Origin: Planctomycetota bacterium
Lineage (GTDB): Bacteria > Planctomycetota > PLA2
Assembly: GCA_027297745.1 (NCBI GenBank)
Contig: JAPUHK010000024.1
Location: forward strand, 994 to 64,993
Reading direction: 5' to 3'
DNA length: 64,000 bases
Part shown: positions 23,814 through 57,290 of the stretch, in pieces
How the letters are laid out: each line of letters begins with the position of its first letter
Position numbering within the stretch: position 1 is the stretch's first letter
Translations under genes and position numbers: made by a program
Notes under the pieces: generated by a model
The model's database searches: none
What the model saw: only the letters and a program-made list of their open reading frames with translations
Told to the model about the DNA's origin: nothing

Positions 23814-23815
23814 TC

Positions 23816-24283: not shown

Positions 24284-24287
24284 TCCG

Positions 24288-25087: not shown

Positions 25088-25097
25088 CGCCGAAGTC

Positions 25098-27056
25098 ATG
25101 ATGCACGCCCTTCCCTCCTACGCCGTCTGGATCGTGCTGGCGCCCGCGCTGGCCGCGCTCTTGCAGAACTTTTGCGGCAAGCTGCTGCCGCGCAAGGGCG
25201 ACTGGCTCGTCGTGGGCGGCATGGGCGTCTCGCTCGCGCTGTCGCTGATGGTGCTGATGGAGTGGAGGGCCCTCGATCCGGGCCACTACTTCGAAGGCAG
25301 CGTCACCTGGTTCCAGTTGACGGGCGGCATCTCGTTCTCCGTCGGCATCGTGATCGACGGCCTGACCGCGGCCATGCTGATCGTGGTCACGCTGGTCTCG
25401 CTGCTCGTGTTCGTGTTCTCGATGGGCTACATGAAGGGCGACCGGCACTACGACCGCTTCTTCTTCTGGCTCTCGTTCTTCAGCACCTCGATGCTGATCC
25501 TGGTGGTGGCCGACAACCTGCTGCTGCTGTTCGTCGGCTGGGAGCTGGTGGGGCTTTGCAGCTACAAGCTGATCGGCTTCTGGGGCCAGGACCTGGCCAA
25601 CGCGGAGGCGGCCAAGAAGGCCTTCATCACCACCCGCGTGGGCGACGTCGGGATGCTGATCGGCATCCTCATGATGTACAAGGCCTGCGGCACGCTCTCG
25701 TTGCAGGGCGTGTTCGCGCAGGTGCAGGCCGGAGCGATCCAGGGCAGCGCGCTGACCTGGGCCGGCATCGCGCTGTTCCTCGGCGCGGTCGGCAAGTCGG
25801 CGCAGTTCCCGCTGCACGTCTGGCTGCCGGACGCCATGGCGGGCCCGACGCCTGTCAGCGCGCTGATCCACGCGGCCACGATGGTGGCGGCGGGGGTCTA
25901 CTTCGCGGCGCGCATGTTCCCGATCTTCACGCCGCAGGCGCTGTACTTCATCGCCTGGACGGGCGGTGTGACCGCGCTGCTGGCGGCGCTCATCGCGGTC
26001 ACGCAGACGGACATAAAGAAGGTGCTGGCCTACTCCACGATCAGCCAGCTCGGCTACATGATCCTCGGCGTCGGCGTGGGCGCTCCGTGGGCGGCCATGT
26101 TCCACCTGTGCACGCACGCCATGTTCAAGGCCTGCCTGTTCCTCGGCTCCGGCTCCGTGATCCACGCCATGCATCACACCCAGGAGCTCGAGGACATGGG
26201 CGGCCTGCGCAAGAAGATGCCGGTCACCTTCTGGACCTTCGTGGTCAGCACGCTCGCGCTGGCCGGCATCCCCTTGTTCAGCGGCTTCATGTCGAAGGAC
26301 GCAATCCTGTTCGAGGCGTTGCACAGCGGGCAGACGGCGCTGTTCGCGATCGGGCTCGGTGCCGCCTTCCTGACCGCTTTCTACATGACGCGCATGCTGT
26401 GGCTGTGCTTCATGGGCGAGCCGCGCAACCGGGAGAAGCACGACCACGCGCACGAGTCGCCCGTGAGCATGACGCTGCCGCTGGTCGTGCTGGCACTGCT
26501 CTCGATCGGGATCTTCTGGGGCGGGTTCGCGGACGACTATTTCACGACGCCCGCCTACCACGCGGACTACCCGCAGACGGCGGAGGTGGCGGCGGCTTAT
26601 GCGCCAGCGGGAGAGGTGCGCGCTCATCCACACCACCCGGTGTGGTTCCTGCTGCTGGCGAGCGCGATGGGTCTCGGCGGCATCGCGCTGGGCATCGCGC
26701 TGTTCCGCTCCGGCAAGCGGGACCAGGACACGGTGCTCTTGCCCGAAGGGCTGCACCGCACGGCGAAGAACAAGTACTACCTCGACGACCTCTACCTGGG
26801 CTGGGGCTTCGTCGGGCTCGGTGACACGCTCAGCCGTTGGAGCCGCGTGGCCGACGACCGCGCGGTCGACGGCGCGGTCAACGGTGTCGGCAGCGCGGGC
26901 GTGACCGTCGCCGAGATCAGCGGGGACGCGGACCAGGTCATCGTGGACGGCGCTGTCAACCTGGTCGCGGACGCCACGGACGCGGTAGGCGGCGTGGCCA
27001 GTAGCGCGCAGACGGGGCGCATTCGGAACTACCTGGGAGCAGCACGACGGTCGTGA
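25098..27056 (+). CDS. nuoL: NADH-quinone oxidoreductase subunit L
   Basis: FVGWELVGLCSY...GKSAQFPLHVWLPDAMAGPTPVSALIHAATMVAAG. Confidence 0.95.
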   Translation: MMHALPSYAVWIVLAPALAALLQNFCGKLLPRKGDWLVVGGMGVSLALSLMVLMEWRALDPGHYFEGSVTWFQLTGGISFSVGIVIDGLTAAMLIVVTLVSLLVFVFSMGYMKGDRHYDRFFFWLSFFSTSMLILVVADNLLLLFVGWELVGLCSYKLIGFWGQDLANAEAAKKAFITTRVGDVGMLIGILMMYKACGTLSLQGVFAQVQAGAIQGSALTWAGIALFLGAVGKSAQFPLHVWLPDAMAGPTPVSALIHAATMVAAGVYFAARMFPIFTPQALYFIAWTGGVTALLAALIAVTQTDIKKVLAYSTISQLGYMILGVGVGAPWAAMFHLCTHAMFKACLFLGSGSVIHAMHHTQELEDMGGLRKKMPVTFWTFVVSTLALAGIPLFSGFMSKDAILFEALHSGQTALFAIGLGAAFLTAFYMTRMLWLCFMGEPRNREKHDHAHESPVSMTLPLVVLALLSIGIFWGGFADDYFTTPAYHADYPQTAEVAAAYAPAGEVRAHPHHPVWFLLLASAMGLGGIALGIALFRSGKRDQDTVLLPEGLHRTAKNKYYLDDLYLGWGFVGLGDTLSRWSRVADDRAVDGAVNGVGSAGVTVAEISGDADQVIVDGAVNLVADATDAVGGVASSAQTGRIRNYLGAARRS

Positions 27057-27073
27057 TTCTGCTTTAGGAAACG

Positions 27074-28624
27074 ATGAACGAACTCACGTATGCGATCTTC
27101 CTCCCGCTGGTCGGGATGCTGGCGGTGCTCTTGACCAACAAGGAGAAGCCGCAGCAGGCGCGCGTGGTCGGCTTCCTGTTCACGCTCGTCACCTTCGGGC
27201 TGTGCACCCTGGTGGCGCTGCAGTGCTTCAACGCGGGCGACGTGGACGGCTACCACTACCGCGTCCAGGCAGTGTGGATCGACCTCGGCGGCAGCTTCCA
27301 GGTGCACTACTCGATCGGCGTGGACGGCCTCAGCGGCATGCTGATCTTCCTGACGGGGCTGCTGGGCGTGTGCGCCGCGCTGGCGTCGTGGAACATCAAG
27401 CAGGGCACGCGCGGCTACTGGGCCATGTTCCTGCTCTTGCACACGGGCGTGATCGGCACCTTCGCCTCGCTGGACCTGTTCCTGTTCTACGTCTTCTGGG
27501 AGATCGTGCTCCTGCCGATGTACTTCCTGATCGGCGTGTGGGGCGGCCCGCGGCGCAGGTACGCGGCGATCAAGTTCTTCCTGTACACGCTGTTCGGCTC
27601 GGTCTTCCTGCTGGCCGGCATCCTGGTCACCTACTTCGCGCTGACGGCCACGGGGTCCGGCTTCGCCGGCAACCCATTCAGCATTCCAGAGATCACGGCC
27701 TACGCGAGGGTGACGGACAACATCATGGCGCCCTTCGGCGAGAGCGCGCACACGATCGCGACGCTCGTGTTCTGGGGCCTGTTCGTCGCCTTCGCGATCA
27801 AGGTGCCAGTCTTCCCGTTCCACACGTGGTTGCCGGACGCCCACGTCGAGGCGCCGACGCCCATCTCCGTGATCCTGGCGGGCATCCTGCTGAAGCTCGG
27901 CGCGTACGGCATGCTGCGCATCGGGTTCCCGTTCTTCCCAAAGATCTTGCACGAGATGGCCTTCTATCTCGGCGTGCTGGGAATGATCAACATCATCTAC
28001 GGCGCGCTGGTGGCCATGGCGCAGACCGACTTCAAGCGGCTCGTGGCCTACTCGTCGGTCTCGCACATGGGCTTCGTCATCCTCGGCTTCGCCGCGATGA
28101 CGCCGGAATCGCTGAACGGCGCGATCCTGATGATGTTCAACCACGGCACGATCAGCGGCCTGTTGTTCCTGGTGGTGGGCGTCGTGTACGACCGCGCGCA
28201 TCACCGCGACCTGGGACGTTTCGGCGGGCTGATGTGGAACATGCCGATCTACGCCGCAATCAGCGGCGTGGCAATCTTCGCCTCGCTCGGCCTGCCCGGC
28301 TTGAGCGGTTTCATCGGCGAGATACTGACCCTCCTCGGGTCCTTCAAGACGACCTTCTACGAGCACGCCGGCCTGATCACGGTCGTGTGCACGATCGGCC
28401 TGGTGTTGACCGCGGCCTACTACCTGCGGGCGCTGCAGCGCGTCTTTTTGGGCGAGACCAACCCTGAGTGCGAGTCGTTCCCCGACGTCGACACGCGCGA
28501 GATCGGCTCGATGGTGCCGCTCCTGGTGCCGACGATCGTCTTCGGCATCTATCCCGCGCCGCTGATCGACCTGATCCAGGGTCCCGTGAGTAGCCTCGTG
28601 CTGATGGTGAAGAGTCTGGGCTGA
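27074..28624 (+). CDS. nuoM: NADH-quinone oxidoreductase subunit M
   Basis: FVFWEIVLLPMYFLIGVWGG...FPFHTWLPDAHVEAPTPISVILAGILLKLG. Confidence 0.95.
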   Translation: MNELTYAIFLPLVGMLAVLLTNKEKPQQARVVGFLFTLVTFGLCTLVALQCFNAGDVDGYHYRVQAVWIDLGGSFQVHYSIGVDGLSGMLIFLTGLLGVCAALASWNIKQGTRGYWAMFLLLHTGVIGTFASLDLFLFYVFWEIVLLPMYFLIGVWGGPRRRYAAIKFFLYTLFGSVFLLAGILVTYFALTATGSGFAGNPFSIPEITAYARVTDNIMAPFGESAHTIATLVFWGLFVAFAIKVPVFPFHTWLPDAHVEAPTPISVILAGILLKLGAYGMLRIGFPFFPKILHEMAFYLGVLGMINIIYGALVAMAQTDFKRLVAYSSVSHMGFVILGFAAMTPESLNGAILMMFNHGTISGLLFLVVGVVYDRAHHRDLGRFGGLMWNMPIYAAISGVAIFASLGLPGLSGFIGEILTLLGSFKTTFYEHAGLITVVCTIGLVLTAAYYLRALQRVFLGETNPECESFPDVDTREIGSMVPLLVPTIVFGIYPAPLIDLIQGPVSSLVLMVKSLG

Positions 28625-30183
28625 TGCTGCTGGGTGCGGAAGCCTTTATCCCCGACGTCTCGGCGTTGTTCAGCCACTTCGGCGCGGAAGTCGTGCTGGC
28701 GTTGGGGATCCCCTTGCTCCTCGTGGCGGACCTGTTCACCCGCCGCAACAAGGAGTCGGTCACCGGCGCTCTCTCGCTGGTGCTGTTGACCGTCGCCCTC
28801 GTGCTCGGGCTCTGGCAGGACTCCTCCAGCAGCGTCGGTCTGACGAGCCTCTTGCGCGCGGACGGGCTGGCCAAGGGCTTCCGCGTGATCGCGCTGGCCA
28901 GCGGCGTGATCACCGCGGTGGCAGCACTGCGCGGCGGTGACGCGGTGCGCCACCGGACGGAGTTCTTCGTGCTCCTGATGGGGGCCGTACTCGGCGCCTG
29001 CCTCACGGCGGCCGCGAACGAGATGGCCATGCTGTACCTCGCGATCGAGACGCTGTCGATCGCCGGGTACCTGCTGGCCGGCTTCAAGCGGCGCGATCCG
29101 CAGGGCTCGGAGGCCGCGCTGAAGTACATCATCTTCGGCGCCATCTCCTCCGGCATGATGCTGTACGGCCTGACCTTGCTGTACGGCTTCGGCGGGACGA
29201 GCCTCTTGACCACGCCGCCGGGCGCCCCTGAAGGCACCGTTTCGCTGCAGTCCTATCTGCAAGAGAACGCCTCGGCGCTCGCCATGAAGCCCGCCTTCAT
29301 CGCCGCCGTGGTGCTGGTGTTCGCGGGCCTGGCCTACAAGATCGCCGCGGCGCCGTTCCATTTCTGGTGCCCCGACGTCTACCAGGGCGCGCCCACCTCG
29401 GTGGCGGGTTTCCTGGCCGTTGCCGGAAAGGGCGCCGGGCTGGCCGCCTTCATCCGCATCGTGCAGGCCGTCACCGGCGGCGCCGGCGACCACATCACGG
29501 ACCTCTTGGCCAGGCACAACGACGTGATCCGCACGGTGCTGATCGGCATGTCGATCGCGACCATGACGATCGGGAACGTAGCCGCGCTGCGCCAGCGCAA
29601 CGCCAAGCGGATTCTGGCCTACAGCGCCATCGCGCACGCGGGCTACATCCTGATGGGTCTCACGGTCACCAGCCGCGCGGGCGCGACGGCCATGCTCTTC
29701 TACATGGGCGTCTACGTGTTCATGACGTTCGGCGCCTTCTTCATGGTGGCGCTCGTGGAGCGCGAAAAGGGTAGCTGCGACCTGTCGGCCTTCGAGGGGC
29801 TCGGGTTCCGTGCGCCCTTCTTCGCCGTGTCCTTCGCGATCGTGCTGATCAGCCTGACGGGCCTGCCGCCGACCGGCGGCTTTTGGGCCAAGGTGTTCCT
29901 GTTCGAGGGCGTGTTCAGCTACGGCGGCGCGCACTCCTCGAGCCTGTACCTGTGGTTCGGCGTGATCGGCCTGCTCAACGGGGTCATCTCGCTGGTCTAC
30001 TACGCCCGCTTCCTGAAGGCCATGTACCTGGCCGACCCGGAGCACAACACCGGCTCCGGGCTGGAGCTCGGCCTGGCGGACAAGAGCATGGTGTTCGCCA
30101 TGACGCTGCCGCAGCTGGTGCTCGGCGTGATGTTCGCTGGGCTCTACGAGACGGCGCAGCTTCTGGTCGTGGATCTCTTCTGA
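28624..30183 (+). CDS. nuoN: NADH-quinone oxidoreductase subunit N
   Basis: YLAIETLSIAGYLL...AAAPFHFWCPDVYQGAPTSVAGFLAV. Confidence 0.95.
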   Translation: MLLGAEAFIPDVSALFSHFGAEVVLALGIPLLLVADLFTRRNKESVTGALSLVLLTVALVLGLWQDSSSSVGLTSLLRADGLAKGFRVIALASGVITAVAALRGGDAVRHRTEFFVLLMGAVLGACLTAAANEMAMLYLAIETLSIAGYLLAGFKRRDPQGSEAALKYIIFGAISSGMMLYGLTLLYGFGGTSLLTTPPGAPEGTVSLQSYLQENASALAMKPAFIAAVVLVFAGLAYKIAAAPFHFWCPDVYQGAPTSVAGFLAVAGKGAGLAAFIRIVQAVTGGAGDHITDLLARHNDVIRTVLIGMSIATMTIGNVAALRQRNAKRILAYSAIAHAGYILMGLTVTSRAGATAMLFYMGVYVFMTFGAFFMVALVEREKGSCDLSAFEGLGFRAPFFAVSFAIVLISLTGLPPTGGFWAKVFLFEGVFSYGGAHSSSLYLWFGVIGLLNGVISLVYYARFLKAMYLADPEHNTGSGLELGLADKSMVFAMTLPQLVLGVMFAGLYETAQLLVVDLF

Positions 30184-35920: not shown

Positions 35921-36202
35921 CTATTCGTCGGCCTGCGCGGCCTCGTCTTCGGGGCGCAAGCCGGTCTCGTGGAACTCCTTGCGGGCGGCGGCGTAGGCGT
36001 CCGGGTCCAGCTCCTCCAGCACGAAGGCGTCGGGGTCCCTGGCGATGCGCTCCAGGTAGGGGATGCACCAGCCGCAGCCGGTGCCCGCGTCCAGGCAGTT
36101 GCTCATTTGCGACACCCGCTGCGGCCTCTCACGGCGCGCGAAGTTCACCAGCTTACGCAGCGAGACCTTGAAGCAGTAACAGACCTTGTCGTCGAGTTGC
36201 AC
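35921..36202 (-). CDS. BFD-like [2Fe-2S]-binding domain protein
   Basis: A GTG start gives VQLDDKVCYCFKVSLRKL...GTGCGWCIP (C-x-C...C-x2-C). The remainder of the 324-aa ORF has non-coding-like composition. Confidence 0.7.
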   Translation of the reverse strand: MQLDDKVCYCFKVSLRKLVNFARRERPQRVSQMSNCLDAGTGCGWCIPYLERIARDPDAFVLEELDPDAYAAARKEFHETGLRPEDEAAQADE

Positions 36203-36338
36203 GGGCCGGGCGGCGAGTCTACCACCGTACGACCGTGCGGGAGCAGGCGCAGGACTCCAGGGCGCCTCGCGGGGCGCCGATAGTGGAATAGAATTACGGC
36301 GTCCGTTTTCGGACGGGACGGCGTTAAGCAAGGCAAGC

Positions 36339-37379
36339 ATGCGGTTCTGGCTCCCTCTTCTGTGCCTGCTCTTGGCAACGCACCCCGCCCAGGCCGGCAA
36401 GGCCGATCGCCTCGCGGGTGAAGCGCGCAAGCTGGCCGAGTCCGTCGACGAGATCTGGCAGGCATTGCTGGATGACCACGAGGAGGTCTCGGACGAGGAT
36501 CTGCAGAAGCTGATCGATGTGTCCGGCAAGGCCGCCGACTTGTACGGCGAGGTGCTGGAGCTCGAGGACCGCGCCGGCATCGACGAGCGCATCGTGCGCC
36601 TGAGCAGGCGCATCCAGGCCGCCCTGCAGCTGCGTGCGCAGCGCGCGGCCGCCGCGGGGGGCGAGGTCGACCCGACGGCGCCGCCGGAGCAGGCCGGCCC
36701 CACGGCTGCAGGGACGGCCCCGAAGCCGCCCGGCTCCGGGGTCAGCGAGCGGGACCGCCAGCGGCAGGAACGCGGCACGCGCACGCAGAAGCTGCCGCCG
36801 ACGACGGCGGAGGCCTTCGCCAAGGTGCCGGTGCCGGAGGAGACCAGGCGGCAACAGCTGCGCCACGAGTCCGACCTGCGCAAGTTCATTCTCAACTACG
36901 CCGCCGCCCGCAGGTTAGGCACGCTCGTCACGCGTTGCACCAACTGCAACGGCTCGGGCCGCATTGGGCTCGGCAAGCGCGGCAGGGACGGCAAGGCCAT
37001 CTACCTGGCCTGCCGGCAGTGTTACGGCGAGGGCGCGCACCTGAACTCCCACGCCGCCCGCAAGGCCTTCTGGCTCTCGAAATCGCCCTACTACCGCGCC
37101 AAGGAGATCAATCGCGCCCGGTTCGAGGAGAAGCTCAAGAAGTGGGGGCGCAAGCCCACGAGCATCCGCGAGTTCCTGCGCAAGGTGAAGCTGGAGTCGG
37201 TCGAGTACCACGGCCTGTGGGCCATGGCGAGCTACACCGAGTACGTGCGCAAGGTCCATCCGCGCAAGAAGAAGCTCACGCGCGAGGTGAACGCGTACTT
37301 CATCCGCATCGGCCGGCGCTGGTTCTTCTTCGACGCGCGCGCGGATCGCGAGTTCCTGGAAGCGCACACGCCGCACTAG
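36339..37379 (+). CDS. Secreted protein with DnaJ-type CxxCxGxG zinc-finger pair
   Basis: MRFWLPLLCLLLATHPAQA signal peptide and a coiled-coil/low-complexity middle. It then has CTNCNGSGRIG...CRQCYGEG. Confidence 0.7.
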   Translation: MRFWLPLLCLLLATHPAQAGKADRLAGEARKLAESVDEIWQALLDDHEEVSDEDLQKLIDVSGKAADLYGEVLELEDRAGIDERIVRLSRRIQAALQLRAQRAAAAGGEVDPTAPPEQAGPTAAGTAPKPPGSGVSERDRQRQERGTRTQKLPPTTAEAFAKVPVPEETRRQQLRHESDLRKFILNYAAARRLGTLVTRCTNCNGSGRIGLGKRGRDGKAIYLACRQCYGEGAHLNSHAARKAFWLSKSPYYRAKEINRARFEEKLKKWGRKPTSIREFLRKVKLESVEYHGLWAMASYTEYVRKVHPRKKKLTREVNAYFIRIGRRWFFFDARADREFLEAHTPH

Positions 37380-37636: not shown

Positions 37637-38665
37637 CTAGTCGTTGTCGGTCTCGGGCACGCGCAGCGTGATCCATACCGGGCGATGGTCGCTGACCGCG
37701 CGGGCCGCCGCCGCATCGTTGCCGCCGTAGATCGTCTCGTCGAACTTGCGCGTTCCGGACGTTCCGGTCCACTCCGTCGTGTGCTTCGGATGGATGAAGA
37801 TCTGATCGAAGTTGGTGCGTCCCCGCACGCCGGTGAACGTCAGGTCGTCGACGGTCGGCCTCAGGCCGGAGTTTTGGAGCAGCGCCTCGAAGGCCGGGTC
37901 GCCGCTGTCCAACTTGAAGTCGCCCATCAGGATCACGTCGCGGTCACCGGGCGTCGCCGCCTGGATACGGTCCCAGGCCGCGGCCAGCGCGCTCACCTCG
38001 GCCTTGCAGTGCGCCAGCGTGTGGCCGGGGTAGATGTGCACGGCCGCCAGCGTGAAGTCGAAGCCGCCGCCGGTCGTGAAGCCGGCGAAGACTACGTCGC
38101 GCGTCAGCTCGTTGTCCGGGTCGGCATCGACCTTCAGCCCGCCGGCCATGCGGATCGCGGAGGAATCCCACAGGAGCCCGATGCGCTGCCGGTGGCCACT
38201 GGCCTCTCCCAGCTCCGGGCTGGCCGCATGTTTCCAGGAGGAGCCGAACTCGCTCGCCAGGCGCTCCAGCGACTGCTCGCTGCGGACACCCGCCAGAACC
38301 ACGATCTGCATGCCCTCGACGGTCCGGGCGATGGCGCTGCGCGCTTCCGCGCTGCTCATGCGCTGCACGTTCCACCACATGACGCTCACGGTCGGGCCCG
38401 GAGTGGGCTGCGAGGGCAAGACCACCTTGGGGGTGGGCTGCACTTTGGCCACCGGCTCCACCCCGGCCACGGGCTCTTCCCGAGGGGGCGGGGTCATGAC
38501 CGTGGCCGGCGTCGGCTCTTCCGTGGGGACGTCCCTGATCATGGGGACAGCGCCGGGCTCGCCCGCCACGGCGGTGCCGAGGGTCGGCTCACGGTAGTCG
38601 GGGCCGGTCCCCTGGCAGGCCGCCAAAGCAGCGGCCAAGGCGGCGGCGACGAAGACTCTGGGCAT
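37637..38665 (-). CDS. Endonuclease/exonuclease/phosphatase (EEP) family lipoprotein
   Basis: MPRVFVAAALAAALAACQG carries a lipobox. Also VMWWNVQRM...ILMGDFKLD...SDHRPVWITL. Confidence 0.8.
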   Translation of the reverse strand: MPRVFVAAALAAALAACQGTGPDYREPTLGTAVAGEPGAVPMIRDVPTEEPTPATVMTPPPREEPVAGVEPVAKVQPTPKVVLPSQPTPGPTVSVMWWNVQRMSSAEARSAIARTVEGMQIVVLAGVRSEQSLERLASEFGSSWKHAASPELGEASGHRQRIGLLWDSSAIRMAGGLKVDADPDNELTRDVVFAGFTTGGGFDFTLAAVHIYPGHTLAHCKAEVSALAAAWDRIQAATPGDRDVILMGDFKLDSGDPAFEALLQNSGLRPTVDDLTFTGVRGRTNFDQIFIHPKHTTEWTGTSGTRKFDETIYGGNDAAAARAVSDHRPVWITLRVPETDND

Positions 38666-39142
38666 GTTCTCCTCCTAGCTTGGGCTAGTGTCGCCACGGC
38701 CGCTGGTGGCGTCCAGACCTTATTCGGCCCCTCGAGGGCGATTCGGGCCGCTTGTCCCAGAGCGACGCAACCGCCTGACAGATGGGGCCCCCTTTGTCGA
38801 TTTCGGTCGACGACGGGACCCGTCCCTGGCCTGAAAGCCGGCCTTCCAGAAGTTCGCTCTGTGGGTGTGCGGCGCCCCGCTGCGGCGGGTCCGGGCACGC
38901 CCGTTGCGGTCGGGACGCGGCAGTAATCGACGATTCCCGAGCCGGCGCTCCGCACACACCCGCAGTAGCCGCGGCTAGTGCATTCGGACGCCGGCCGGGG
39001 CGGGGCTTCGACACCTGGACGGCGGTGCGAGGGGCGCGGGCCGGGGCCCGACTTGGGGCCTTCATGCCCTAAATGCGCCAAGCGCTCGCTGACACCGCGG
39101 CCGAGATGCCTGAGAATGCATGACCAGAGAGAGGAGATCTTC

Positions 39143-39889
39143 ATGACGAGAGTTGGTTTGGGTGTGTTCGTGGTTGCGTTGGTGACTCTGGGGTTGGTCG
39201 GCGTCGGCTGCAAGGGCACGACCAGCGGCGACTCGGGGTGCGGCGCCTGTGGAGACGGGTGCGCTGCATGCGGTGCGTGCGGCGCCTGCGGCGCTTGCGG
39301 CGACGGTTGCGGTGCAGGTTGCGGTGCGTGCGGCGGCTGTGCAGGCTGCGGCGACGGTTGCGGCGGCTGTGGCGGTAAGAGCGGCTGTGGCACTTGCGGC
39401 GACGGTTGTGGCGGATGTGGCGGCAAGAGTGGTTGTGCCTCCGCGTGTGGTTGCGGTGGCTGTGGCTGTGGCGGTTGCGGTTGCGGCGGCGGGGCGAGCA
39501 CGTCCAGCTCCGACCAAAAGCACGCCAAGGAGTTGTTCGCCTCCTACAAGAGTTGGCGCAAGATGACCGACGCGCCCTTCAAGAGCAAGGGCCACGGCAA
39601 CATGATGGTGCACGACTGGGTCAACTCGCGTGCGCTGGCCACCTTCCGGGCCAAAAAGGGCAGCTACGTGCCCGGCGCGGCCCTGGCCAAGACGGGCTGG
39701 AAGGGCGATACGCTCAAGAAGGTGTGGCTCATGGAGAAGCGCGGCAGCGGCTACGACAAGGAGAACGGGGACTGGTGGTACGCACAGCTCAACGCCGCCG
39801 GCAAGGTGGAGAAGGCGGGCAAGGCCTCGGGCTGCATCGACTGCCACGGGGGCGCCGACAACGACTACGTCTTCGGCCTGAAGAAGTAG
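39143..39889 (+). CDS. Lipoprotein with a Cys/Gly-rich repeat region fused to a cytochrome P460-like heme domain
   Basis: GAGGAG Shine-Dalgarno. [23 protein letters not shown] has a lipobox-like end. An ~85-aa stretch contains about 25 Cys ([20 protein letters not shown]...). The C-terminal domain has [22 protein letters not shown]...[16 protein letters not shown] (CXXCH). Confidence 0.8.
39239..39493 (+). repeat. In-frame TGC/GGC-rich coding repeat (Cys-Gly array), including a 48-nt tandem duplication
   Basis: Units 39347-39394 and 39395-39442 encode [16 protein letters not shown] and [16 protein letters not shown]. Confidence 0.85.
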
Positions 39890-39920
39890 ACCGTGTTGCC
39901 CCAGCGGGGGCCCGCCCCTG

Positions 39921-40823
39921 CTAGAGCTTCCTTACGGCCCGCACCAGAGCCGCGGCGGTCGCCGCTGGGAGCGGTCGCGTGCGCCAGTCGGGTTCTCCCG
40001 CCCACGAGCCCAAGATCTTGTAGGCGCAGCCGTAGGGCTGTGTGGGGCCGAGGCCGCATGCCAGGTCGAACCAGAGCACGCCGCGGCGCTCGCCGCCGCC
40101 CATGTCCCTGAAGTGTTGGCCCGCGTCTTCGTCGTGCAGGCGCACAAGCCCGGGGCGCTCCCGCAAGAACTCCCCGATGTGCCAGCGCAAGGGACCGTAG
40201 GACACGTCGTGCTGCATCTCGAGGCTCGCCTCTACGAGACGCAGGATGCCGCCCTGCGTCTGGTAGGTCTTGCGCCACTCGAACAGATGTGCGGGCGAGT
40301 CGGCCAGGCGCCGGGCGTCCTTGCCGTCGATAAGCGGATCGCCGGCATCGTAGAAGCTGGCCTCGATGGTAAAGCAGCGTCCGGGCAACGCCGGACGCGG
40401 GTAGTGCTTGACCAGAACGCGCAGCGGCCGCGTCTCCGCGGCACCGCGGGCGGCAGCCTGCACGGTCCGCCAGCCGTCAACGATGCGACCGGTCGTGTCC
40501 TTGACGAACAGGTCGTCCGTTTGCGCCGGCAACCCGAGCGCACCCAGCGCCTCCACGAAGGCCGCCGCCTGGCCGGCCCCCGGACGCACGACCAGCTCCG
40601 GCGGGCAGCTTGCAGGCACGCGTTCGTGCTCGCGCGTGGACAGTAGGAGCGGCGTCATGCGCCGTACGGGCACGACACCCCTGCGGTAGGTGCCCAGGTA
40701 GTAGGAGTCCGGGTCCACCGGGGGCGGCTCGGGCCCCGTGGCCGGGCCGAGCGGCTGGCCTACGACGGCGCCGCTGATCCCACCGAAGAGAGCCGCGAAG
40801 GCCAGTACCGCCGCTGTGCGCAC
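39921..40823 (-). CDS. Secreted hypothetical protein
   Basis: GTG start. MRTAAVLAFAALFGGISGAVVG is a plausible signal peptide. Coding-like GC3 runs throughout. I recognise no motif. Confidence 0.6.
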   Translation of the reverse strand: MRTAAVLAFAALFGGISGAVVGQPLGPATGPEPPPVDPDSYYLGTYRRGVVPVRRMTPLLLSTREHERVPASCPPELVVRPGAGQAAAFVEALGALGLPAQTDDLFVKDTTGRIVDGWRTVQAAARGAAETRPLRVLVKHYPRPALPGRCFTIEASFYDAGDPLIDGKDARRLADSPAHLFEWRKTYQTQGGILRLVEASLEMQHDVSYGPLRWHIGEFLRERPGLVRLHDEDAGQHFRDMGGGERRGVLWFDLACGLGPTQPYGCAYKILGSWAGEPDWRTRPLPAATAAALVRAVRKL

Positions 40824-40858
40824 GCCTGGAAGACGTACGAGACGCGCCGGGAGTTCCG

Positions 40859-41434
40859 CTAGGCGCTAACCGACTCTTCGGGGGCCTCGACCACTTCGGG
40901 CTCGTCCGACGTCTTGGCAGGCTCGTCGCGCAGCAGGCGCTGCACCAGCTCGCGCGCCGCGGACACGTCCGGCTCCTGCAGGCAGCGGTCGAGATCTTGG
41001 AGCAGTTCCTGCCGGTCGCGCATGCTCTGCGCGAGGGTGTTTACTTCGGTCGCCATCGTCTTCAGGTAGTCGCGCTTGCGCAGCGAGAGCCGCTGGTCGA
41101 GGTTGCCGGTGTTGATGCCCTTGAGCGCGCGCTCGATGACGAAAGCCGGGCCCGCCACGCGGTGGCTGACCAGGATGATCACGGTGAACAGGATGCAGGC
41201 CGCCAGCACGAAGTAGATCAGGTTGGCGCGCAGCATCACCTCGCGCGTCTCCTGCGCGTTGAGCTGCTCGATGGTGCCCTGGCCCGGCAGCAGGAACAGT
41301 GCTGCGAGATACAGCCCCGCCACGCCGAGCAGCACGGCCAACATGTAGAAGGCCATCGTCAACTGCATGCGGTTGTTGACGAGGTATGAGAGCCGGCGGA
41401 AAGACCGGCGTTCCTTCGGCTTGGATTCCGACAC
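40859..41434 (-). CDS. Membrane protein with two TM helices and a HAMP domain, no output domain
   Basis: MAFYMLAVLLGVAGLYLAALFLL and LIYFVLAACILFTVIILV are followed by the HAMP-like HRVAGPAFVIERALKGINTGNLDQRLSLRKRDYL. Confidence 0.7.
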   Translation of the reverse strand: MSESKPKERRSFRRLSYLVNNRMQLTMAFYMLAVLLGVAGLYLAALFLLPGQGTIEQLNAQETREVMLRANLIYFVLAACILFTVIILVSHRVAGPAFVIERALKGINTGNLDQRLSLRKRDYLKTMATEVNTLAQSMRDRQELLQDLDRCLQEPDVSAARELVQRLLRDEPAKTSDEPEVVEAPEESVSA

Positions 41435-43167: not shown

Positions 43168-43473
43168 ATGGACGGTGACTTCATGGACGGTGCTCAGGCC
43201 AGGCTCGCCGCGTTGCGCGTGATGCAGGACGTGCTGGACGGGAGCGTACGGCGGGTGGGGGAGCTGCGCCGGGCGTGGCCGCCGGCCGAAGCTGATTTCC
43301 TGCTGAAGCGGGCGCGCCAGGAGGCGGAGCACTACCTGGTCACGGGCGGGGAGCTCGAGCGCCGTTTCGTGGCCATGCTGCGCTCGTTTCTGGAACGCGG
43401 CGGCACGGCCGGGGAGCTCGAGCAGGCCTACGATGAGGTGATCCGAGTCCACAACGAGGAGACGGGTGACTAG
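43168..43473 (+). CDS. Small helical hypothetical protein
   Basis: MDGDFMDGAQARLAALRVMQDVL.... GTG 43126 is an alternative start. The stop overlaps the GTG start of the DUF488 gene. Confidence 0.55.
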   Translation: MDGDFMDGAQARLAALRVMQDVLDGSVRRVGELRRAWPPAEADFLLKRARQEAEHYLVTGGELERRFVAMLRSFLERGGTAGELEQAYDEVIRVHNEETGD

Positions 43474-44011
43474 CCCGAAGCTCTTCACCGTCGGCCACAG
43501 CAACCGCACGGCGCCGGATCTCGTGCGGCTGCTGCTTGCGCACGGCATCCGCACCGTGTGCGACGTGCGCGCCTTTCCGAAGTCGAGCCGCTGGCCGCAT
43601 TTCGACCGCGAGGCGCTGGAGCCTGTGTTGCAGGACGCCGGGATCGAGTACGTCTGGCTCGGCGAGCCGCTCGGCGGCTACCGCAAGGGCAAACGCACGG
43701 ACTCGGTGCACACGGCGCTGGACAGCTTCCGCAGCTACGCGGATCACATGGAGAGCGACGAGTTCCGTGCAGGGATCGCGCGCTTGCTAGCGCTCGCGTG
43801 CGAGACGCCGACGGCCTACCTGTGCGCCGAGAAGGACTGGCGCCGCTGCCACCGGCGCCTGATCTCAGACCACCTCGTGGAGCTCGAGGGCGCCGCAGTG
43901 GTCCACCTGCTGGCAGCGGACGCCTGTGAGGCCCACGCGCTGGACCCGCGTGCCCGCGTCGTGGCGGGGCGCCTGGTGTACGACCGGGGCGCGCAGGCCG
44001 AGCTCTTCTGA
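43466..44011 (+). CDS. DUF488-family protein
   Basis: LFTVGHSNRT...VCDVRAFPKSSRWPHF...LCAEKDWRRCHRRLISDHL. Confidence 0.85.
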   Translation: MTSPKLFTVGHSNRTAPDLVRLLLAHGIRTVCDVRAFPKSSRWPHFDREALEPVLQDAGIEYVWLGEPLGGYRKGKRTDSVHTALDSFRSYADHMESDEFRAGIARLLALACETPTAYLCAEKDWRRCHRRLISDHLVELEGAAVVHLLAADACEAHALDPRARVVAGRLVYDRGAQAELF

Positions 44012-44051
44012 CGCCGCGCTGTCCCGGGCTTCTGTTAGGCTTTTGTTAGGT

Positions 44052-45077
44052 ATGCTGACAAGGGTCGAGAACCCGCCGAACCCGTGGCACTCCCAGCACC
44101 AGGAGTGGGTTGGACCGCCGCCGCCTGCACGCCTGCAGGTCTACGAAGAGAGGGCCAGGTCGATCGTGGTTGAGAACCGGAGCCCAGACGTGGGCTTCGG
44201 TTTCTCCATCAACCCCTACAGGGGGTGTTTTCACGGGTGCTCCTACTGCTACGCGAGGCCCACGCACCAGTACCTCGACTTCGGCGCGGGCACGGACTTC
44301 GAGCGCAAGATCGTCGTGAAGGTCAACGCGCCGGAGCTTCTGCGCGAGCGCTTTCTCAAGCCTTCGTGGCGGGGCGATCTGATCGCACTTTCGGGCAACA
44401 CCGATTGCTATCAGCCGCTCGAAGCCACCTACGGGATCACCCGCCGCATCCTCGAGGTCTGCGCGGAGTTCCGCAATCCAGTGGCCGTGATCACGAAGGC
44501 GGCGCTGATCCGGCGCGACGTCGACGTGCTTTGCGAGCTGGCGCGCCGGGCGCAGCTGTCGGTCTCTTTCAGCATCCCGTTCGTCGACGAATGGATGGCG
44601 CGGCAGATCGAGCCTTACGCGCCGTCCCCGGACATGCGCTTTGGGGCCATGCGCGTGCTGGCCGAGGCCGGGATTCCGGTCGGCGTGGCCGTGGCTCCGC
44701 TGATCCCCGGACTGAACGACAGCCAGGTGACCGCGATCCTGGAGCGGGCGCGCGATTGCGGCGCGCGCAGCGCGTTCAAGATCCTGCTGCGCCTCCCCGC
44801 GGAGGTGAAGGACGTGTTCATCCCCCGCCTGCGGCGCTCCTACCCGGGGCGTTCGAAGCGTGTGCTGAACGCGCTCAAGGAGATGCGCGGCGGCGCCCTG
44901 TACACCGCGCAGTTCGGCAGCCGCATGCGCGGCCGCGGACACCGCTGGAAGGCGCTCGAGGACCTGTTCGAGGTCACCTGCCGACGGCTCGGGCTCAACG
45001 CGCGCCGCACGGAGGAAGAGCCGACGACCTTCCGCCGGCCGTGCACGCAGCTCTCGTTGCTCGACCCTACGCCGTGA
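44052..45077 (+). CDS. Radical SAM protein (SplB/PA0069-like, COG1533-type)
   Basis: INPYRGCFHGCSYCYARP contains the CxxxCxxC motif. Internal ATG of ORF 43926-45077. Confidence 0.85.
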   Translation: MLTRVENPPNPWHSQHQEWVGPPPPARLQVYEERARSIVVENRSPDVGFGFSINPYRGCFHGCSYCYARPTHQYLDFGAGTDFERKIVVKVNAPELLRERFLKPSWRGDLIALSGNTDCYQPLEATYGITRRILEVCAEFRNPVAVITKAALIRRDVDVLCELARRAQLSVSFSIPFVDEWMARQIEPYAPSPDMRFGAMRVLAEAGIPVGVAVAPLIPGLNDSQVTAILERARDCGARSAFKILLRLPAEVKDVFIPRLRRSYPGRSKRVLNALKEMRGGALYTAQFGSRMRGRGHRWKALEDLFEVTCRRLGLNARRTEEEPTTFRRPCTQLSLLDPTP

Positions 45078-53566: not shown

Positions 53567-56395
53567 CTAGGGTCCGCTGACGTAGTTGCCGGCGTTGCCC
53601 CCGATGTTGCCGTTGGCGTCCAGCCAGGAGTCCAGGTGGATTCCGATGGCCGGGTCGGGGTTGGTCAGCCTGTCGATCAGCGTGCCCGTCAGCGGTCCCG
53701 CCATGGTCGGGTTGGGCGTGCCCGTGCGCAAGCTCGGGCCCGTCCCCGGCATGAGCGGGTGGTTGCTGGAGCTCGTCGGAGTTCCGTCCGCGAGCACGAT
53801 GCTGTCCAGGTTGTAAGCGATGCGGGTCATGAACGTGGCCGGGTCGAAGGCCGTCGCCGGCGCGACCGTCACGTTCTGGATGCCCGGATCGGCGAAGATG
53901 CCGTACCGGTTCGGGTTCTGGTCCAGCGGGTTGATAGCGCCGCCGTTCCCGTCGAACAGGAACAGCCCCGTACCCAGGCCGGCCACCATGTGCACCCAGA
54001 AGGGTGAGTTCATCTGGTTGCCGGAGTTCTGGCCGAAGTGCTGCCTCAGCTCCGTGAAGTCCAGTTGATCGTAGCTTCCGCTCGCCATGGCGGAACGGAA
54101 GGCCACGTACTCGGTCCCGTACTGCTGCATACCCGCCTCGGTGATGTGGCACGCGACGCAGTAGCGCGGGCCCTCCATGGTGGAGGTGACGCGGCCGCGG
54201 ATCGAGTGGGCCATCATCGCGTTGTGACCGAGCGAGGGCGTTTGGTTGGGGTCGCTCCCCTGCGCCTTGCGGTCGGAGAACGTGAAGATGCTGGACAGCT
54301 GGTTGTTGCGGTCCTCCCACTGGAAGAACATCTTCGTGTTCGAGCTGACCTGCGTGATCTCGTTGTGCGGGCTGATGCCCAGCGCCATGAACACGGGCGA
54401 CTGGTACACGAACTCGGCCTCGTCCTCCTCGAAGACGATGCGCTCGCCCGTGATGTTGCTGAAGTCATTCGAGTACTCGCCCTTCAGGTGACAGCCCATG
54501 CACGTGTTCGTCCACGAAGCGTGGCAGGACGCGCAGTCCAGGTCGTCCGTGTGGCTGAAGTTGCTCGGGACCGCGTTGTTCGCCTGGATCGGACCTATGC
54601 CGGTCGTGCCCAGGCCGTCGTCACGGCCCATCGCATAGGAGGCCTTGTCGCTGTACAGGGGCGCCCCGCTGAACGGGTGCGTCCGGCCCGTGTTCACGGT
54701 GACGTCCAGCGTCTGCGGGACGAAGTGACGCGCGCCCGTGAGACGGCTGTACAGGTAGAAGTGGCCGTCGCTCTCCAGCACGACGTGCGCCAGGGTGTTC
54801 CCCTCGCCGTCCACCGCCAGCTCCTGGGTGGTGTTGTCGTAGGCCGTGCCTTGAGCCGTCTGGGCATAGGCCGCGACGCCGCCGTGGCAGCTCTCGCAAC
54901 GGATCCCCACGGCGTGCTCCATGCGGCTCACGATCTTGCCGCCGCTCGGGGAGGTCACGTCGCCGCCGTGCAGGTCGAAGCTGCCGTGGCAGTCGATGCA
55001 GCCCATGCCGGCCTCGTAGTGCACGTCGGGCGGGGTGTCGTCGCGGCCGTCGTCGTCGTAGTCCTCCTCGAGGAGGTACTGGTTGCGGTTGCGCCCGTTG
55101 AACTCGCGGTTCCCCAACCGGATCAGGACGCCGTTCTGGTCGTAGATCGGCAGGTTGGGGTCGAACAGGCGCGTGTCGCCGGAGGTCGTCCGGTAACTTC
55201 CCGGCTGCGACGGGTACTGGAAGCCGCGCCGCACGTCCTGGTTCTGGTCGAGGCGGATGCCCCAGTACTGCATGACCGTGCGGTTCGAGCCCTGGTGGCA
55301 GCCGGCGCAGGCGTAGTCGTCGATGCCCTGGACGAACTCGCCGCTGGACAACGTCTTGGCCACGGTGCGGATCAGGTGGCGGGCGACGTGCGGCAGCTCG
55401 GGCTCGTCGATGTCGTCCGGATCGTACGGCTCCATGCGGTTGAGGTTCGGATCGTTGCTGGTGGAGCGCCCGCTCAGGCTGTGGCGCATGTGGCACGCCG
55501 AGCAACCCGAGCCGCGGTAGTCGCCGTAGCGGTTGTTCGCGCCGGCGCTGCCGAGGTGGCAGTCTCCGCAGGTGTAGGCGATCTGCTCGTGATAGAGCTT
55601 CGCCAGCGGGGAGTCCGTGATCGCCTGGCCCGTCAGCGGATCGATGTCGTCATCGAGCTCGGCGGCGTCGAAATCCGGGTTGTTGCGGATGTCGTTCGGG
55701 CCGTTGTTGAAGCGCCGGCTGTAGACCGGGAACTCCATCAGGTTTTGCACCGAACCGAAGGTCGTCGGGTCGAAGCTCTGGTCCGTGACGGCGCGAATGC
55801 CCAGGTCGGCGGCCGTGTCCTCGTAGCCCGTGTACCCCATCTGGTTGTCCACGCCGGCCGCGAACATCGCGCCGGAGAAGATGCCCATCTCGGTGGCGAT
55901 CGGGCTCTGGGACACGATCTGCGCGTGGTTCGCGTGGCACTGGCCGCAGCTGCGGTTCTGCGTGACCACGCGGATGTCGGCCGGGCTGACGAACTGCAGC
56001 CAGTCCAGCGCGCTGTAGGTCTGCCCGTTCGCGGCCGTGTAGTCCGGGAACTTGTCCGGACCGGCCAGGGTCAGCCGGTTGAAGTAGGCGTGGTCGTTGT
56101 TGATCCAGTTCTGCCGGTCGCCGATCTCGGGCGGCGCCGGGACGTGGCTCGAGGCCCTGTCCGTCCCGTTCGGGTTTCCGCCGTGGCAGGTGGTGCACAG
56201 CAGGTTGCTGGCGCCCGTGAAGGGGTGTGGGTTCTCGAGGCCCGGGCCCCCGTAGTTGTTGTCCACGGAGCCGTTGTGGCAGGTCATGCACGACTGGGCC
56301 GACGCTGTGATCGCGCGGCCGCTGGAGTCGACGCAGCCCGTCACGACGAACGCCAGTAGGAAGATGACTGAGAGGAGACCTCTGTGATGAGTCAT
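53567..56395 (-). CDS. Large multiheme c-type cytochrome lipoprotein (11 CXXCH)
   Basis: MTHHRGLLSVIFLLAFVVTGC carries a lipobox. The motifs are CMTCH, CTTCH, CGQCH, CGDCH, CSACH, CAGCH, CIDCH, CESCH, CASCH, CMGCH and CVACH. Confidence 0.9.
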   Translation of the reverse strand: MTHHRGLLSVIFLLAFVVTGCVDSSGRAITASAQSCMTCHNGSVDNNYGGPGLENPHPFTGASNLLCTTCHGGNPNGTDRASSHVPAPPEIGDRQNWINNDHAYFNRLTLAGPDKFPDYTAANGQTYSALDWLQFVSPADIRVVTQNRSCGQCHANHAQIVSQSPIATEMGIFSGAMFAAGVDNQMGYTGYEDTAADLGIRAVTDQSFDPTTFGSVQNLMEFPVYSRRFNNGPNDIRNNPDFDAAELDDDIDPLTGQAITDSPLAKLYHEQIAYTCGDCHLGSAGANNRYGDYRGSGCSACHMRHSLSGRSTSNDPNLNRMEPYDPDDIDEPELPHVARHLIRTVAKTLSSGEFVQGIDDYACAGCHQGSNRTVMQYWGIRLDQNQDVRRGFQYPSQPGSYRTTSGDTRLFDPNLPIYDQNGVLIRLGNREFNGRNRNQYLLEEDYDDDGRDDTPPDVHYEAGMGCIDCHGSFDLHGGDVTSPSGGKIVSRMEHAVGIRCESCHGGVAAYAQTAQGTAYDNTTQELAVDGEGNTLAHVVLESDGHFYLYSRLTGARHFVPQTLDVTVNTGRTHPFSGAPLYSDKASYAMGRDDGLGTTGIGPIQANNAVPSNFSHTDDLDCASCHASWTNTCMGCHLKGEYSNDFSNITGERIVFEEDEAEFVYQSPVFMALGISPHNEITQVSSNTKMFFQWEDRNNQLSSIFTFSDRKAQGSDPNQTPSLGHNAMMAHSIRGRVTSTMEGPRYCVACHITEAGMQQYGTEYVAFRSAMASGSYDQLDFTELRQHFGQNSGNQMNSPFWVHMVAGLGTGLFLFDGNGGAINPLDQNPNRYGIFADPGIQNVTVAPATAFDPATFMTRIAYNLDSIVLADGTPTSSSNHPLMPGTGPSLRTGTPNPTMAGPLTGTLIDRLTNPDPAIGIHLDSWLDANGNIGGNAGNYVSGP

Positions 56396-56419
56396 TTCTG
56401 ATCTCACTTTGCCCGACCC

Positions 56420-57278: not shown

Positions 57279-57290
57279 GGGTATCAACTC

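Follow-up and report, generated by a model that had tools for sequence, protein, structure and literature searches.

The question raised by this locus is whether a single gene in the 64,000-nucleotide stretch of planctomycete DNA analysed here (the window) truly joins a dense array of cysteines to a haem domain and, if so, what such a combination might do. The initial annotation, made from the letters of the DNA, described a metallothionein-like Cys/Gly array fused to a cytochrome P460-like haem domain on a lipoprotein. The strings that it quoted are all present in the protein: the leader with Cys23, a 19-residue string at residues 195-213, CIDCH at 231-235 and DNDYVF at 239-244. We conclude that this is a real gene, encoding a membrane-anchored haem protein of the P460 family with 25 Cys residues in its tether. 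As predicted from its sequence, the product is a Sec-exported, lipid-anchored, single-haem c-type cytochrome of the P460/c'-beta fold, with a disordered Cys/Gly segment of about 90 residues between Cys23 and the domain.

The gene occupies positions 39143-39889 of the forward strand, on which all features described below also lie, and is a complete coding sequence of 248 amino acids plus stop (ATG at 39143, TAG at 39887-39889). Its start matches the N-termini of 29 orthologues; the upstream GTG at 38978 is not used by homologues, all of which begin at the position of ATG 39143. A Shine-Dalgarno-like AGAGGAG (39130-39136) can be read from the sequence 6 nt before the ATG. A sigma-70-like promoter candidate, CTGACA-17-GAGAAT (39089-39117), was found as a consensus match only, with 1 site against 0.0 expected in shuffles. 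The 477-nt upstream spacer was searched for an RNA element or riboswitch, and nothing credible was found.

It is conceivable that the array is only a GC-rich simple repeat, non-coding or read in the wrong frame, or that it results from misassembly. Indeed, the DNA of the array is a tandem repeat, one related contig ends inside the array, and exact-sequence look-ups with three alternative starts showed the query protein to be absent from a collection of 15 billion proteins. Such an artefact is however already contradicted, since the open frame runs from a conserved leader into a conserved domain in about 30 orthologues. We take the array to be translated in this frame because it links these two parts in 28 of the 29 orthologues, because the homologues share the start at ATG 39143 rather than GTG 38978, and because an independent metagenome contig (L015), 99.3% identical to the window over 1.9 kb, differs from it within the gene by two indels only, of 3 nt each. 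The chance of an artefact thus seems practically negligible, and the array, whose absence or frameshift in orthologues the initial annotation had named as grounds for giving up its proposal, is in frame both in the orthologues and in the independent assembly.

The N-terminal 23 residues (39143-39211) are predicted to be a Sec-type lipoprotein signal peptide, which fits the lipobox-like leader described initially. This leader consists of MTR, a 19-residue hydrophobic core and the lipobox G-V-G-C23, with a single Arg and with Lys at +2, and the lipobox Cys23 is invariant in an alignment of 30 sequences. Most orthologues have a lipobox of the form [LA][AGS][GA]C; Gly at -3 in the query is off the strict L-[AS]-[GA]-C consensus, and the leader agrees with the PROSITE pattern PS51257. 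The n-region, the core and the lipobox Cys of a bacterial lipoprotein (a substrate of SPase II) are all in place, and lipidation is thus predicted. The leader contains no twin-arginine motif.

The haem domain (residues 121-248; 39503-39886) is predicted to adopt the P460/c'-beta fold. The Pfam profile PF16694 matched residues 134-244 (profile positions 3-124 of 125) with 33.6 bits (cut-off 27, E 5.9e-8), and a family profile matched every solved P460/c'-beta protein (11 distinct PDB sequences), the best being McP460 (E 3.8e-9). The fold agrees with these solved proteins as well, including the five-stranded antiparallel beta-sheet which is unique to the superfamily. The P460-like domain is therefore confirmed, and the missing P460 profile match that was to speak against it did not occur. 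The CIDCH haem c attachment motif (residues 231-235; 39833-39847) is the sole CXXCH in the protein, located C-terminally, and its C, C and H are invariant in the family, so haem attachment is predicted, with the His as the putative proximal ligand. Nothing else appeared in the full-length Pfam scan except a chance match to DUF5014.

To place the key residues we used sequence and profile alignment only, relating the protein to Table 2 of PMC11928373, from which the residue identities were taken. Lys183 (39689-39691) aligns with McP460 Lys78, TtCP-beta Phe61 and NeCP-beta Met79, and it is thus assigned to the position of the cross-link to the haem gamma-meso carbon which defines cytochromes P460, the adduct itself, whose mark is a ferrous Soret band at about 460 nm, being putative; of 238 related domains, 207 likewise have Lys here. 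Where the NH2OH-oxidising P460s have their precisely placed catalytic carboxylate on the distal side (Glu96 or Asp102), the window protein has Trp195 (39725-39727), aligned with McP460 Asp102 and TtCP-beta Gly82. Over the 238 related domains the eight commonest residues in this column are F, T, W, A, V, G, L and I; neither Asp nor Glu is listed. Because the carboxylate position is occupied by Trp195, hydroxylamine oxidation of the N. europaea type is not expected. His151 (39593-39595), part of a loop that directly precedes the distal capping position in the alignment, is nearly invariant in the clade (193 of 208 ungapped domains). Judging from these alignments, the related domains (4,823 representatives of 50%-identity clusters at E <= 0.001) make up a large uncharacterised branch of the family which keeps the cross-link Lys, has no catalytic carboxylate and possesses its own nearly invariant His.

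To our knowledge, all characterised P460 and c'-beta proteins are small and soluble and come mostly from Proteobacteria, with TtCP-beta originating from Thermus. The 'halfway-house' P460 of Nitrosomonas sp. AL212 (NsP460, PDB 6amg) has the cross-link but Ala at the carboxylate site, and it is inactive (PMC11928373). Unlike the window protein, it is a soluble periplasmic protein without a lipid anchor or a Cys array; it has Ala where Trp195 stands here, lacks the His151 motif of the clade and is only about 16% identical. McP460 of M. capsulatus Bath (PDB 6hiu/9hrk), which oxidises NH2OH, has Asp102 and Arg50 where Trp195 and Val156 are aligned in the window protein, and it has neither anchor nor array; the NH2OH-oxidising P460s (NeP460, McP460) form homodimers whose haems are exposed to solvent. 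Cytochromes c'-beta (T. thermophilus 7ead/8brk, M. capsulatus 6hih, N. europaea 7s5o) carry Phe or Met at the Lys183 position and for this reason have no cross-link; they have no Cys array either. One could still argue for a canonical P460, oxidising NH2OH and producing N2O or NO like NeP460 or McP460, in which the array would be irrelevant, as the Pfam threshold is passed, the fold is right and Lys stands at the cross-link position. However, the replacement of the required carboxylate by Trp, the inactivity of NsP460 in spite of its cross-link and the absence of ammonia- or methane-monooxygenase and hao genes from the window make this highly improbable. The domain would rather hold a low-potential haem serving in ligand binding or electron transfer, as in a 'halfway-house' P460 and not an N. 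europaea-type NH2OH oxidase, and it would be kept on the periplasmic face of the membrane.

The array itself (residues 24-116; 39212-39490) contains its 25 Cys at residues 33-114. The 93 residues include 41 G, 25 C, 11 A, 5 D, 5 S, 3 K and 3 T, that is about 27% Cys and 44% Gly, with no H, F, Y or W, and the gaps between the Cys are 1-5 residues long, mainly 2-3. Disorder is predicted over residues 24-113 (AF2 pLDDT of about 40). Tandem Repeats Finder detected the DNA repeats from which the array derives (39239-39496), with periods of 48-51 nt (39239-39437; 2.5-3.2 copies at 74-81% match) and of 6 nt (39449-39496; 8.2 copies), and GC3 is 0.66 in the array versus 0.95 in the haem domain. The Cys/Gly array is far above background. 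In a six-frame scan of about 600 kb of DNA, arrays of the C/G/A type were found only in the P460-family genes themselves, while the remaining dense-Cys matches came from GC-rich stretches translated out of frame and from one structured myxobacterial Cys-repeat protein.

The likeness to metallothioneins (bacterial SmtA/BmtA and eukaryotic MTs) is true of composition: with 25 Cys in 93 residues, CxC, CxxC and CxxxC spacings and no aromatics or His, the array comes close to the roughly 30% Cys of these proteins. It goes no further than that, as neither sequence nor profile comparison relates the array to any metallothionein family or solved structure. Metallothioneins are small proteins, and the bacterial ones known to us are cytosolic, whereas the array forms part of an exported lipoprotein, is far richer in Gly and varies in length by tandem-repeat slippage. 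Searched alone, the array matched nothing in Pfam (E up to 10) or in the PDB. NCBIfam assigned no family to the full protein or its relatives and gave only a sub-threshold CefA-like match on one NPC array of a relative. An array-only homology search yielded 4,693 word-sharing candidates, none of which scored, as the low-complexity correction strips the signal.

The initial annotation proposed a search for homologues with or without the array, and both kinds exist. Arrays are present in 28 of the 29 Planctomycetota orthologues, with 9-31 Cys within 32-134 residues; pooled, they contain 38% G, 26% C and 13% A and almost no His, Met or aromatics, and about 85% of their Cys-Cys gaps are 1-3 residues. 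Between pairs whose domains are 87-94% identical, array lengths differ by up to 23 residues, and in-frame indels alter the array within one population. The length and sequence of the array thus drift fast among close relatives, while the Cys/Gly composition and the 1-3-residue Cys spacing are kept: the array is under selection for composition. The exceptional orthologue, P0029, has an Ala/Glu/Pro linker instead, and relatives from Sericytochromatia have short Ser/Thr/Pro linkers; therefore, the domain functions without an array. In species-representative genomes only 6 relatives were found, all of them distant and array-less (Sericytochromatia, Blackallbacteria, Myxococcales), and they thus point to no cultured host.

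More distant P460-domain proteins, from Alphaproteobacteria and elsewhere, carry non-homologous Cys repeats (NPCAA, CNPC, CGPC and CGACGAKK), which sit N-terminally, C-terminally or in a hairpin between the Lys strand and the MEK strand. The different repeats and insertion sites suggest that arrays have been recruited repeatedly. They were never present in proteins with 2-4 tandem P460-like domains. In one relative, P0117, NPC repeats are accompanied by a Met-rich tail (MMMKEMMMKKDMDMM). Such a composition is typical of periplasmic Cu(I) sites, and the combination may hint at soft-metal binding. The NPCAA-type arrays of the distant relatives also resemble CefA, a RiPP precursor with Cys at every fifth position (NCBIfam NF038108), but the match is weak (16.8 bits, cut-off 30) and reflects composition alone, no radical-SAM maturase gene lies alongside, and the CG array of the window does not match NF038108.

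The surrounding genes are not conserved: different neighbours are found in the window, in loci L001/L014, in L002 and in L003/L004, which rules out a conserved operon. No metal-resistance, sulfur or nitrogen-oxide genes occur in the gene context of the loci examined, and none of these loci has sox, nor, nir or thiol-reductant (DsbD/CcdA) genes in its vicinity. Several candidate associations were rejected. Rieske and cytochrome b genes adjoin the gene in L001 and L014, but these loci belong to two MAGs that are related and syntenic, and the cytochrome b concerned already has a haem c domain of its own. An FGE-sulfatase-family neighbour of the alphaproteobacterial genes is found in two syntenic contigs only; these neighbours contain the motif C-x-[VI]-P-R-L, which does not match the FGE motif CxPxR. 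RiPP-type modification by a radical-SAM enzyme was dismissed too, as the PA0069-family rSAM gene lies 4 kb away behind four genes and is absent near homologues. In the literature search we found no paper which joins P460 with Cys-rich arrays or names the repeat strings, and Cys-rich arrays are not mentioned in the 2025 superfamily review. The initial statement that no described protein pairs such modules thus stands as far as the papers searched are concerned, but some 30 proteins of Planctomycetota, deposited merely as 'cytochrome P460 family protein', have the fusion too, besides the relatives with other repeats, so that it is not unique.

How can the two halves of the protein be understood together? 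Tentatively, we favour the view that this is an anchored 'halfway-house' P460 in which the array acts as a soft-metal and/or thiol/disulfide buffer by the haem. The array would have been selected for thiol density rather than fold, and its most likely role, as we infer, is that of a high-capacity binder of soft metals (Cu(I), Zn(II), Cd(II)) and/or a reversible dithiol/disulfide buffer adjoining the haem. Against a buffer role one may set the gene context devoid of metal-resistance, sulfur and nitrogen-oxide genes, the absence of metallothionein homology and the existence of P0029. Periplasmic Cu sites, moreover, are usually built of Met and His rather than Cys, and free thiols tend to oxidise in the periplasm, which counts against a metal role. 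The main rival, which we judge somewhat unlikely, is a passive or disulfide-stiffened tether. In this case the array would be a spacer with neither a haem dialogue nor a metal role, and its Cys would form disulfides stiffening or cross-linking the stalk, possibly to envelope proteins. The array stands exactly at the lipoprotein-tether position, it is predicted to be disordered, and its length and sequence are not conserved; ordinary linkers serve in P0029 and the Sericytochromatia relatives, the multi-domain proteins always do without arrays, and planctomycete envelopes have been reported to be cystine-rich. There is also a parallel in the Laz azurin and cytochrome c5 of Neisseria, which likewise combine a lipid anchor, a repetitive disordered linker (the low-complexity AAEAP/H.8 repeats) and a small periplasmic redox domain. 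The P0029 linker is exactly of this kind, but the Neisseria linkers, unlike the array, have no Cys. On the other hand, 26% Cys is needless in a spacer, yet it is kept across 28 orthologues while the rest of the array drifts. Furthermore, the Cys repeats of relatives occur also in a domain loop and in C-terminal tails, where tethering is impossible, and chemically different ones were recruited in several clades.

The cysteines might also be reactive arms, serving as intramolecular nucleophiles, carriers or electron sinks for haem chemistry. By analogy, thiolates could attack ferric haem-NO to give S-nitrosothiols and then N2O and disulfide, Gly-flanked Cys could serve as sulfane-sulfur carriers like the GGCGG arm of SoxY, or disulfides could take electrons from the low-potential haem. 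Such a role would explain why Cys arrays are specifically and repeatedly tied to this haem domain, with one insertion placed in a hairpin flanked by two pocket-lining positions, and the array does contain GGCGG-like strings, which resemble the SoxY arm. It would also suit the properties of P460 haems, which have potentials of -300 to -424 mV and an electrophilic {FeNO}6 attacked by nucleophiles (PMC11928373). However, no sox, nor, nir or DsbD/CcdA genes accompany any locus, the module is without experimental precedent, the chemistry is by analogy throughout, and the array can be lost, as in P0029; such arms thus seem quite unlikely. Even slimmer is the chance of the Fe-S-like centre considered initially, in which CxxCxxCxxxC strings would assemble clusters wired to the haem. 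The spacing C46-x2-C49-x2-C52-x3-C56 does resemble ferredoxin motifs, but cofactor-containing Fe-S proteins, as far as is known, reach the periplasm via Tat, and such a centre is unlikely because we are dealing with a Sec-exported lipoprotein whose leader has a single Arg and no twin-arginine motif, and whose c-type haem is attached after unfolded export. Besides, the array is predicted to be disordered, and motif positions are not conserved between orthologues.

A bolder proposal, and a rather doubtful one at present, is that polycysteine arrays are functional partners of an unrecognised P460-fold clade (with Lys, a distal-side His and no carboxylate), recruited several times independently and serving as a reservoir of thiols, thiolates or metal-thiolates. 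The repeat chemistries it would cover are CG, CGACGAKK, NPC and CGPC, at different insertion points. In such a partnership, haem-bound NO might be trapped as S-nitrosothiol or N2O, the array might act as an electron sink or source, or the binding of Cu(I) or sulfane sulfur might be coupled to haem redox.

P460 and c'-beta proteins have been studied as sources and sinks of NO and N2O and for the way in which the haem cross-link tunes reactivity. Here, the domain is joined to dense Cys arrays in several lineages of a large uncharacterised branch: the anchored Cys-array design is conserved in Planctomycetota and recurs with other Cys repeats elsewhere, and no description of it turned up in the papers searched. 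Should the arrays bind metal, or should electrons or ligands pass between them and the haem, we would be dealing with a new bioinorganic haem-polythiol module, which could also represent a new periplasmic route by which Planctomycetota deal with NO, metal or sulfur. As mere tethers, the arrays would still reveal an unusual selection for extreme Cys content in exported disordered segments.

The gene at 39143-39889 (+) is a complete open reading frame of 248 codons plus stop, preceded by a Shine-Dalgarno-like AGAGGAG that ends 6 nt before the ATG at 39143 (+) and by a putative promoter, a sigma-70-like match (CTGACA-17-GAGAAT) at 39089-39117 (+). A longer frame starting from GTG 38978 is also open; we preferred ATG 39143 because the N-termini of all 29 close homologues coincide with it. 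The lipoprotein leader, Cys/Gly array and haem domain described in the initial annotation are all present within 39143-39889, in the order 23-residue leader, KGTTSGDSG, array, and haem domain with CIDCH near its end. The leader consists of one Arg, a 19-residue hydrophobic stretch and G-V-G-C23-K. Its lipobox Cys23 is invariant (30/30 aligned sequences), and most orthologues carry [LA][AGS][GA]C, which is more canonical than the G-V-G-C of the window. Inspection of the leader sequence revealed no twin-arginine motif. Together, these features indicate a protein predicted to be exported by the Sec route and lipidated at Cys23. c-type cytochromes in general receive their haem in the periplasm, and here too haem would be attached there, after Sec export.

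The initial annotation had recognized a P460 pattern in the C-terminal part, and the Pfam model Cytochrome_P460 (PF16694) bears this out, matching residues 134-244 with 33.6 bits (gathering score 27). A PDB search with the single window sequence gave no match; a profile of the C-terminal domains matched all solved members of the P460/c'-beta superfamily, the best being cytochrome P460 of Methylococcus capsulatus Bath (McP460; E 3.8e-9). AlphaFold2 run with the family alignment modelled residues 121-248 with a pLDDT above 90; for residues 24-113 the value was about 40. Profile, fold, CXXCH and Lys thus establish the window protein as a member of the superfamily.

We transferred the diagnostic positions of a 2025 review of the superfamily (PMC11928373) via profile alignments. 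Lys183 shares a column with McP460 Lys78, the cross-link lysine (PMC11928373); in c'-beta proteins this column holds Phe61 or Met79. Trp195 occupies the catalytic-carboxylate column (McP460 Asp102; Gly82 in TtCP-beta, the Thermus thermophilus cytochrome c'-beta), and Val156 is aligned to the capping residue McP460 Arg50, a loop position at which the assignment is less certain. An exhaustive haem-domain profile search returned 4,823 cluster representatives at E <= 0.001 (1,784 at E <= 1e-10), and column statistics were taken from 238 domains of the 183 closest proteins, i.e. the best 150 of these representatives, earlier hits and the query. The cross-link column is Lys in 207 of the 238 domains, the residues listed for the carboxylate column (F, T, W, A, V, G, L, I) include neither Asp nor Glu, and His151 is conserved in 193/208 ungapped rows. 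Judged by its Lys, the window domain appears to be a P460 rather than a c'-beta. The distal carboxylate is indispensable for NH2OH oxidation, and the P460 of Nitrosomonas sp. AL212, which has the cross-link and Ala at the carboxylate site, is inactive (PMC11928373). As Lys is present and the carboxylate is missing, the window protein would belong with the 'halfway-house' proteins of that review, with a clade-specific His in addition, while membership of the NH2OH-oxidising subgroup fails at the carboxylate position.

Residues 24-116 comprise 41 Gly, 25 Cys, 11 Ala, 5 Asp, 5 Ser, 3 Lys and 3 Thr, and no other residue type; the 25 Cys span residues 33-114 with 1-5 residues between them. Since the underlying DNA is a degenerate tandem repeat (periods of 48-51 nt plus a 6-nt run), it was necessary to rule out that the array is artefactual or a simple repeat read in the wrong frame. 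A database search yielded 29 close homologues (E 1e-65 to 1e-30, 183-288 aa), the named ones annotated as 'cytochrome P460 family protein [Planctomycetota bacterium]', and 28 of them keep the three-part layout, with arrays of 32-134 residues and 9-31 Cys. An independently assembled metagenome contig from the same population (JGI Ga0114947_10085286, L015:1-1888) is 99.3% identical to window 39382-41269, and within the gene it differs by one synonymous GGT/GGC change and two in-frame 3-nt indels only, one adding an array Gly codon and the other dropping a C-terminal Lys codon. When the window and 94 loci, about 600 kb in all, were scanned in six frames for Cys arrays, those of the C/G/A type were confined to P460-family genes. 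The array is therefore neither absent nor frameshifted in orthologues, and an artefact is ruled out by these three observations, its probability being negligible. The L015 contig begins inside the array; the repeat probably broke its assembly. Separately, CRDQA pentapeptide-coding repeats lie at the very start of a stretch (L021:2-361) taken from where a 3.4-Mb metagenome contig ends; as both strands give repetitive translations, this run is probably a DNA tandem repeat.

Pooled arrays of the Planctomycetota clade contain 38% Gly, 26% Cys, 13% Ala and 10% Asp plus Glu, with His, Met and aromatic residues nearly missing, and about 85% of their adjacent Cys are spaced 1-3 residues apart. Array length varies by one codon inside a single population (window and L015), and arrays are 31, 40, 49 and 54 residues long in proteins whose haem domains share 87-94% identity. 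Consistent alignment of Cys is limited to the last few before the domain, and this may in part be an alignment effect. The orthologue P0029 is a single case with an Ala/Glu/Pro linker containing 2 Cys, and with Ala at the Lys183 position. Selection seems to act on thiol density and spacing rather than on sequence or fold. GC3 is 0.66 in the array (39212-39490) against 0.95 in the haem domain (39491-39886); the array codons (TGT for 10/25 Cys, GGT for 13/41 Gly) are atypical for the genome, possibly because perfect GC-rich repeats or hairpins are selected against.

In the 183-protein set, 55 of 142 single-domain proteins have a dense Cys window; the other 41, with 2-4 P460-like domains in tandem, all lack one. 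Tandem-domain proteins (P0038, P0041, P0050, P0053 and others) in some cases also bear TIG domains or extra CXXCH. CG-type repeats are found in one Planctomycetota clade. CGACGAKK repeats mark an alphaproteobacterial subclade (P0030-P0037, 310-363 aa; loci L011:3638-4696 and L013:755-1783), where two arrays flank a conserved C-x-[VI]-P-R-L motif; the L011 and L013 contigs are syntenic, both with a divergent FGE-sulfatase-family gene upstream. NPC-type repeats (NPCAA, CNPC, CGPC, NPCGE) turn up here and there among relatives that lack arrays and have Ser/Thr/Pro or other linkers; in a rough neighbour-joining ordering, these repeats fall into two or more further regions. In P0150 (259 aa) and P0117 (257 aa), an NPC array lies inside the haem-domain hairpin, between the cross-link Lys strand and the M-E-K strand, and P0117 also ends in a Met-rich tail with NPC repeats. 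That the units differ, and are inserted at different places, suggests that Cys repeats were recruited to the P460 domain several times independently; the tree is crude and we leave the number of gains unstated.

The window gene is solitary, between a divergent upstream neighbour (37637-38665, -) and a convergent downstream one (39921-40823, -); neither these nor 36180-37379 (+) received a Pfam or NCBIfam assignment. The upstream neighbour starts with a lipoprotein-like leader, MPRVFVAAALAAALAAC. Farther off lie genes for a HAMP-like protein, a dihydrolipoyl-dehydrogenase-like flavoprotein, an ECF sigma factor and a DUF488 protein (43442-44011, +), the end of which is overlapped by a PA0069-family radical SAM gene (stop-to-stop ORF 43863-45077, +; NCBIfam 391.9 bits) that probably starts downstream of 43863. 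Domain matches identify suf Fe-S assembly genes (two class-V aminotransferase/SufS-like and one SufBD) and a nuo (complex I) operon in the regions 11916-18531 (-) and 19459-30183 (+). Four adjacent large ORFs with many haem motifs (about 630-980 aa; 53567-63393, -), three of which match Cytochrome_C7/c3 and MtrC/MtrF-like domains, look like a multihaem cytochrome cluster of the extracellular-electron-transfer type. Neighbours differ between homologue loci. In two syntenic Planctomycetota MAG contigs (L001:8001-11032, L014:4873-7333), the gene is flanked on one side by a purM-like gene and, directly downstream, by a Rieske gene paired with one for cytochrome b. For that lineage alone, this is a weak hint of a role in respiratory electron transfer; the cytochrome b there already has its own C-terminal CXXCH (haem c) domain.

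These results show a lipid-anchored, single-haem cytochrome of P460 fold with a disordered tether that is hypervariable and retains its polycysteine composition. The array would work through its thiols, and we tentatively hypothesize that it binds soft metals and/or serves as a dithiol-disulfide buffer next to the haem, given the metallothionein-like composition and spacing, the apparent selection on composition, and the Met-rich, NPC-bearing tail of P0117. It is possible, if rather doubtful, that the array is a passive or disulfide-stiffened tether; such a role would fit its position, its predicted disorder and the fact that P0029 and other relatives do without it.

Thiol arms taking part in haem chemistry, as nucleophiles towards haem-NO, sulfane-sulfur carriers or an electron sink, seem unlikely, even if chemical analogy and the in-loop array insertions speak for them. 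That the protein is a canonical NH2OH oxidase whose linker is irrelevant is improbable, as the carboxylate is missing, and an Fe-S centre in the array would be most improbable in a disordered segment exported via Sec. The likeness of the array to metallothioneins is one of composition only; with low-complexity tethers of other lipid-anchored redox proteins it shares position only.

Dozens of such proteins are deposited in public databases, generically named 'cytochrome P460 family protein'. Our literature search found no paper on a Cys-rich extension of a P460-family protein, and the dedicated 2025 review (PMC11928373) does not mention one. Thus, the domain is already known, and the polycysteine architecture and the carboxylate-free clade with Lys plus His are undescribed. 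The finding settles no long-standing question; for specialists in P460 or bioinorganic chemistry it would be surprising and directly testable.
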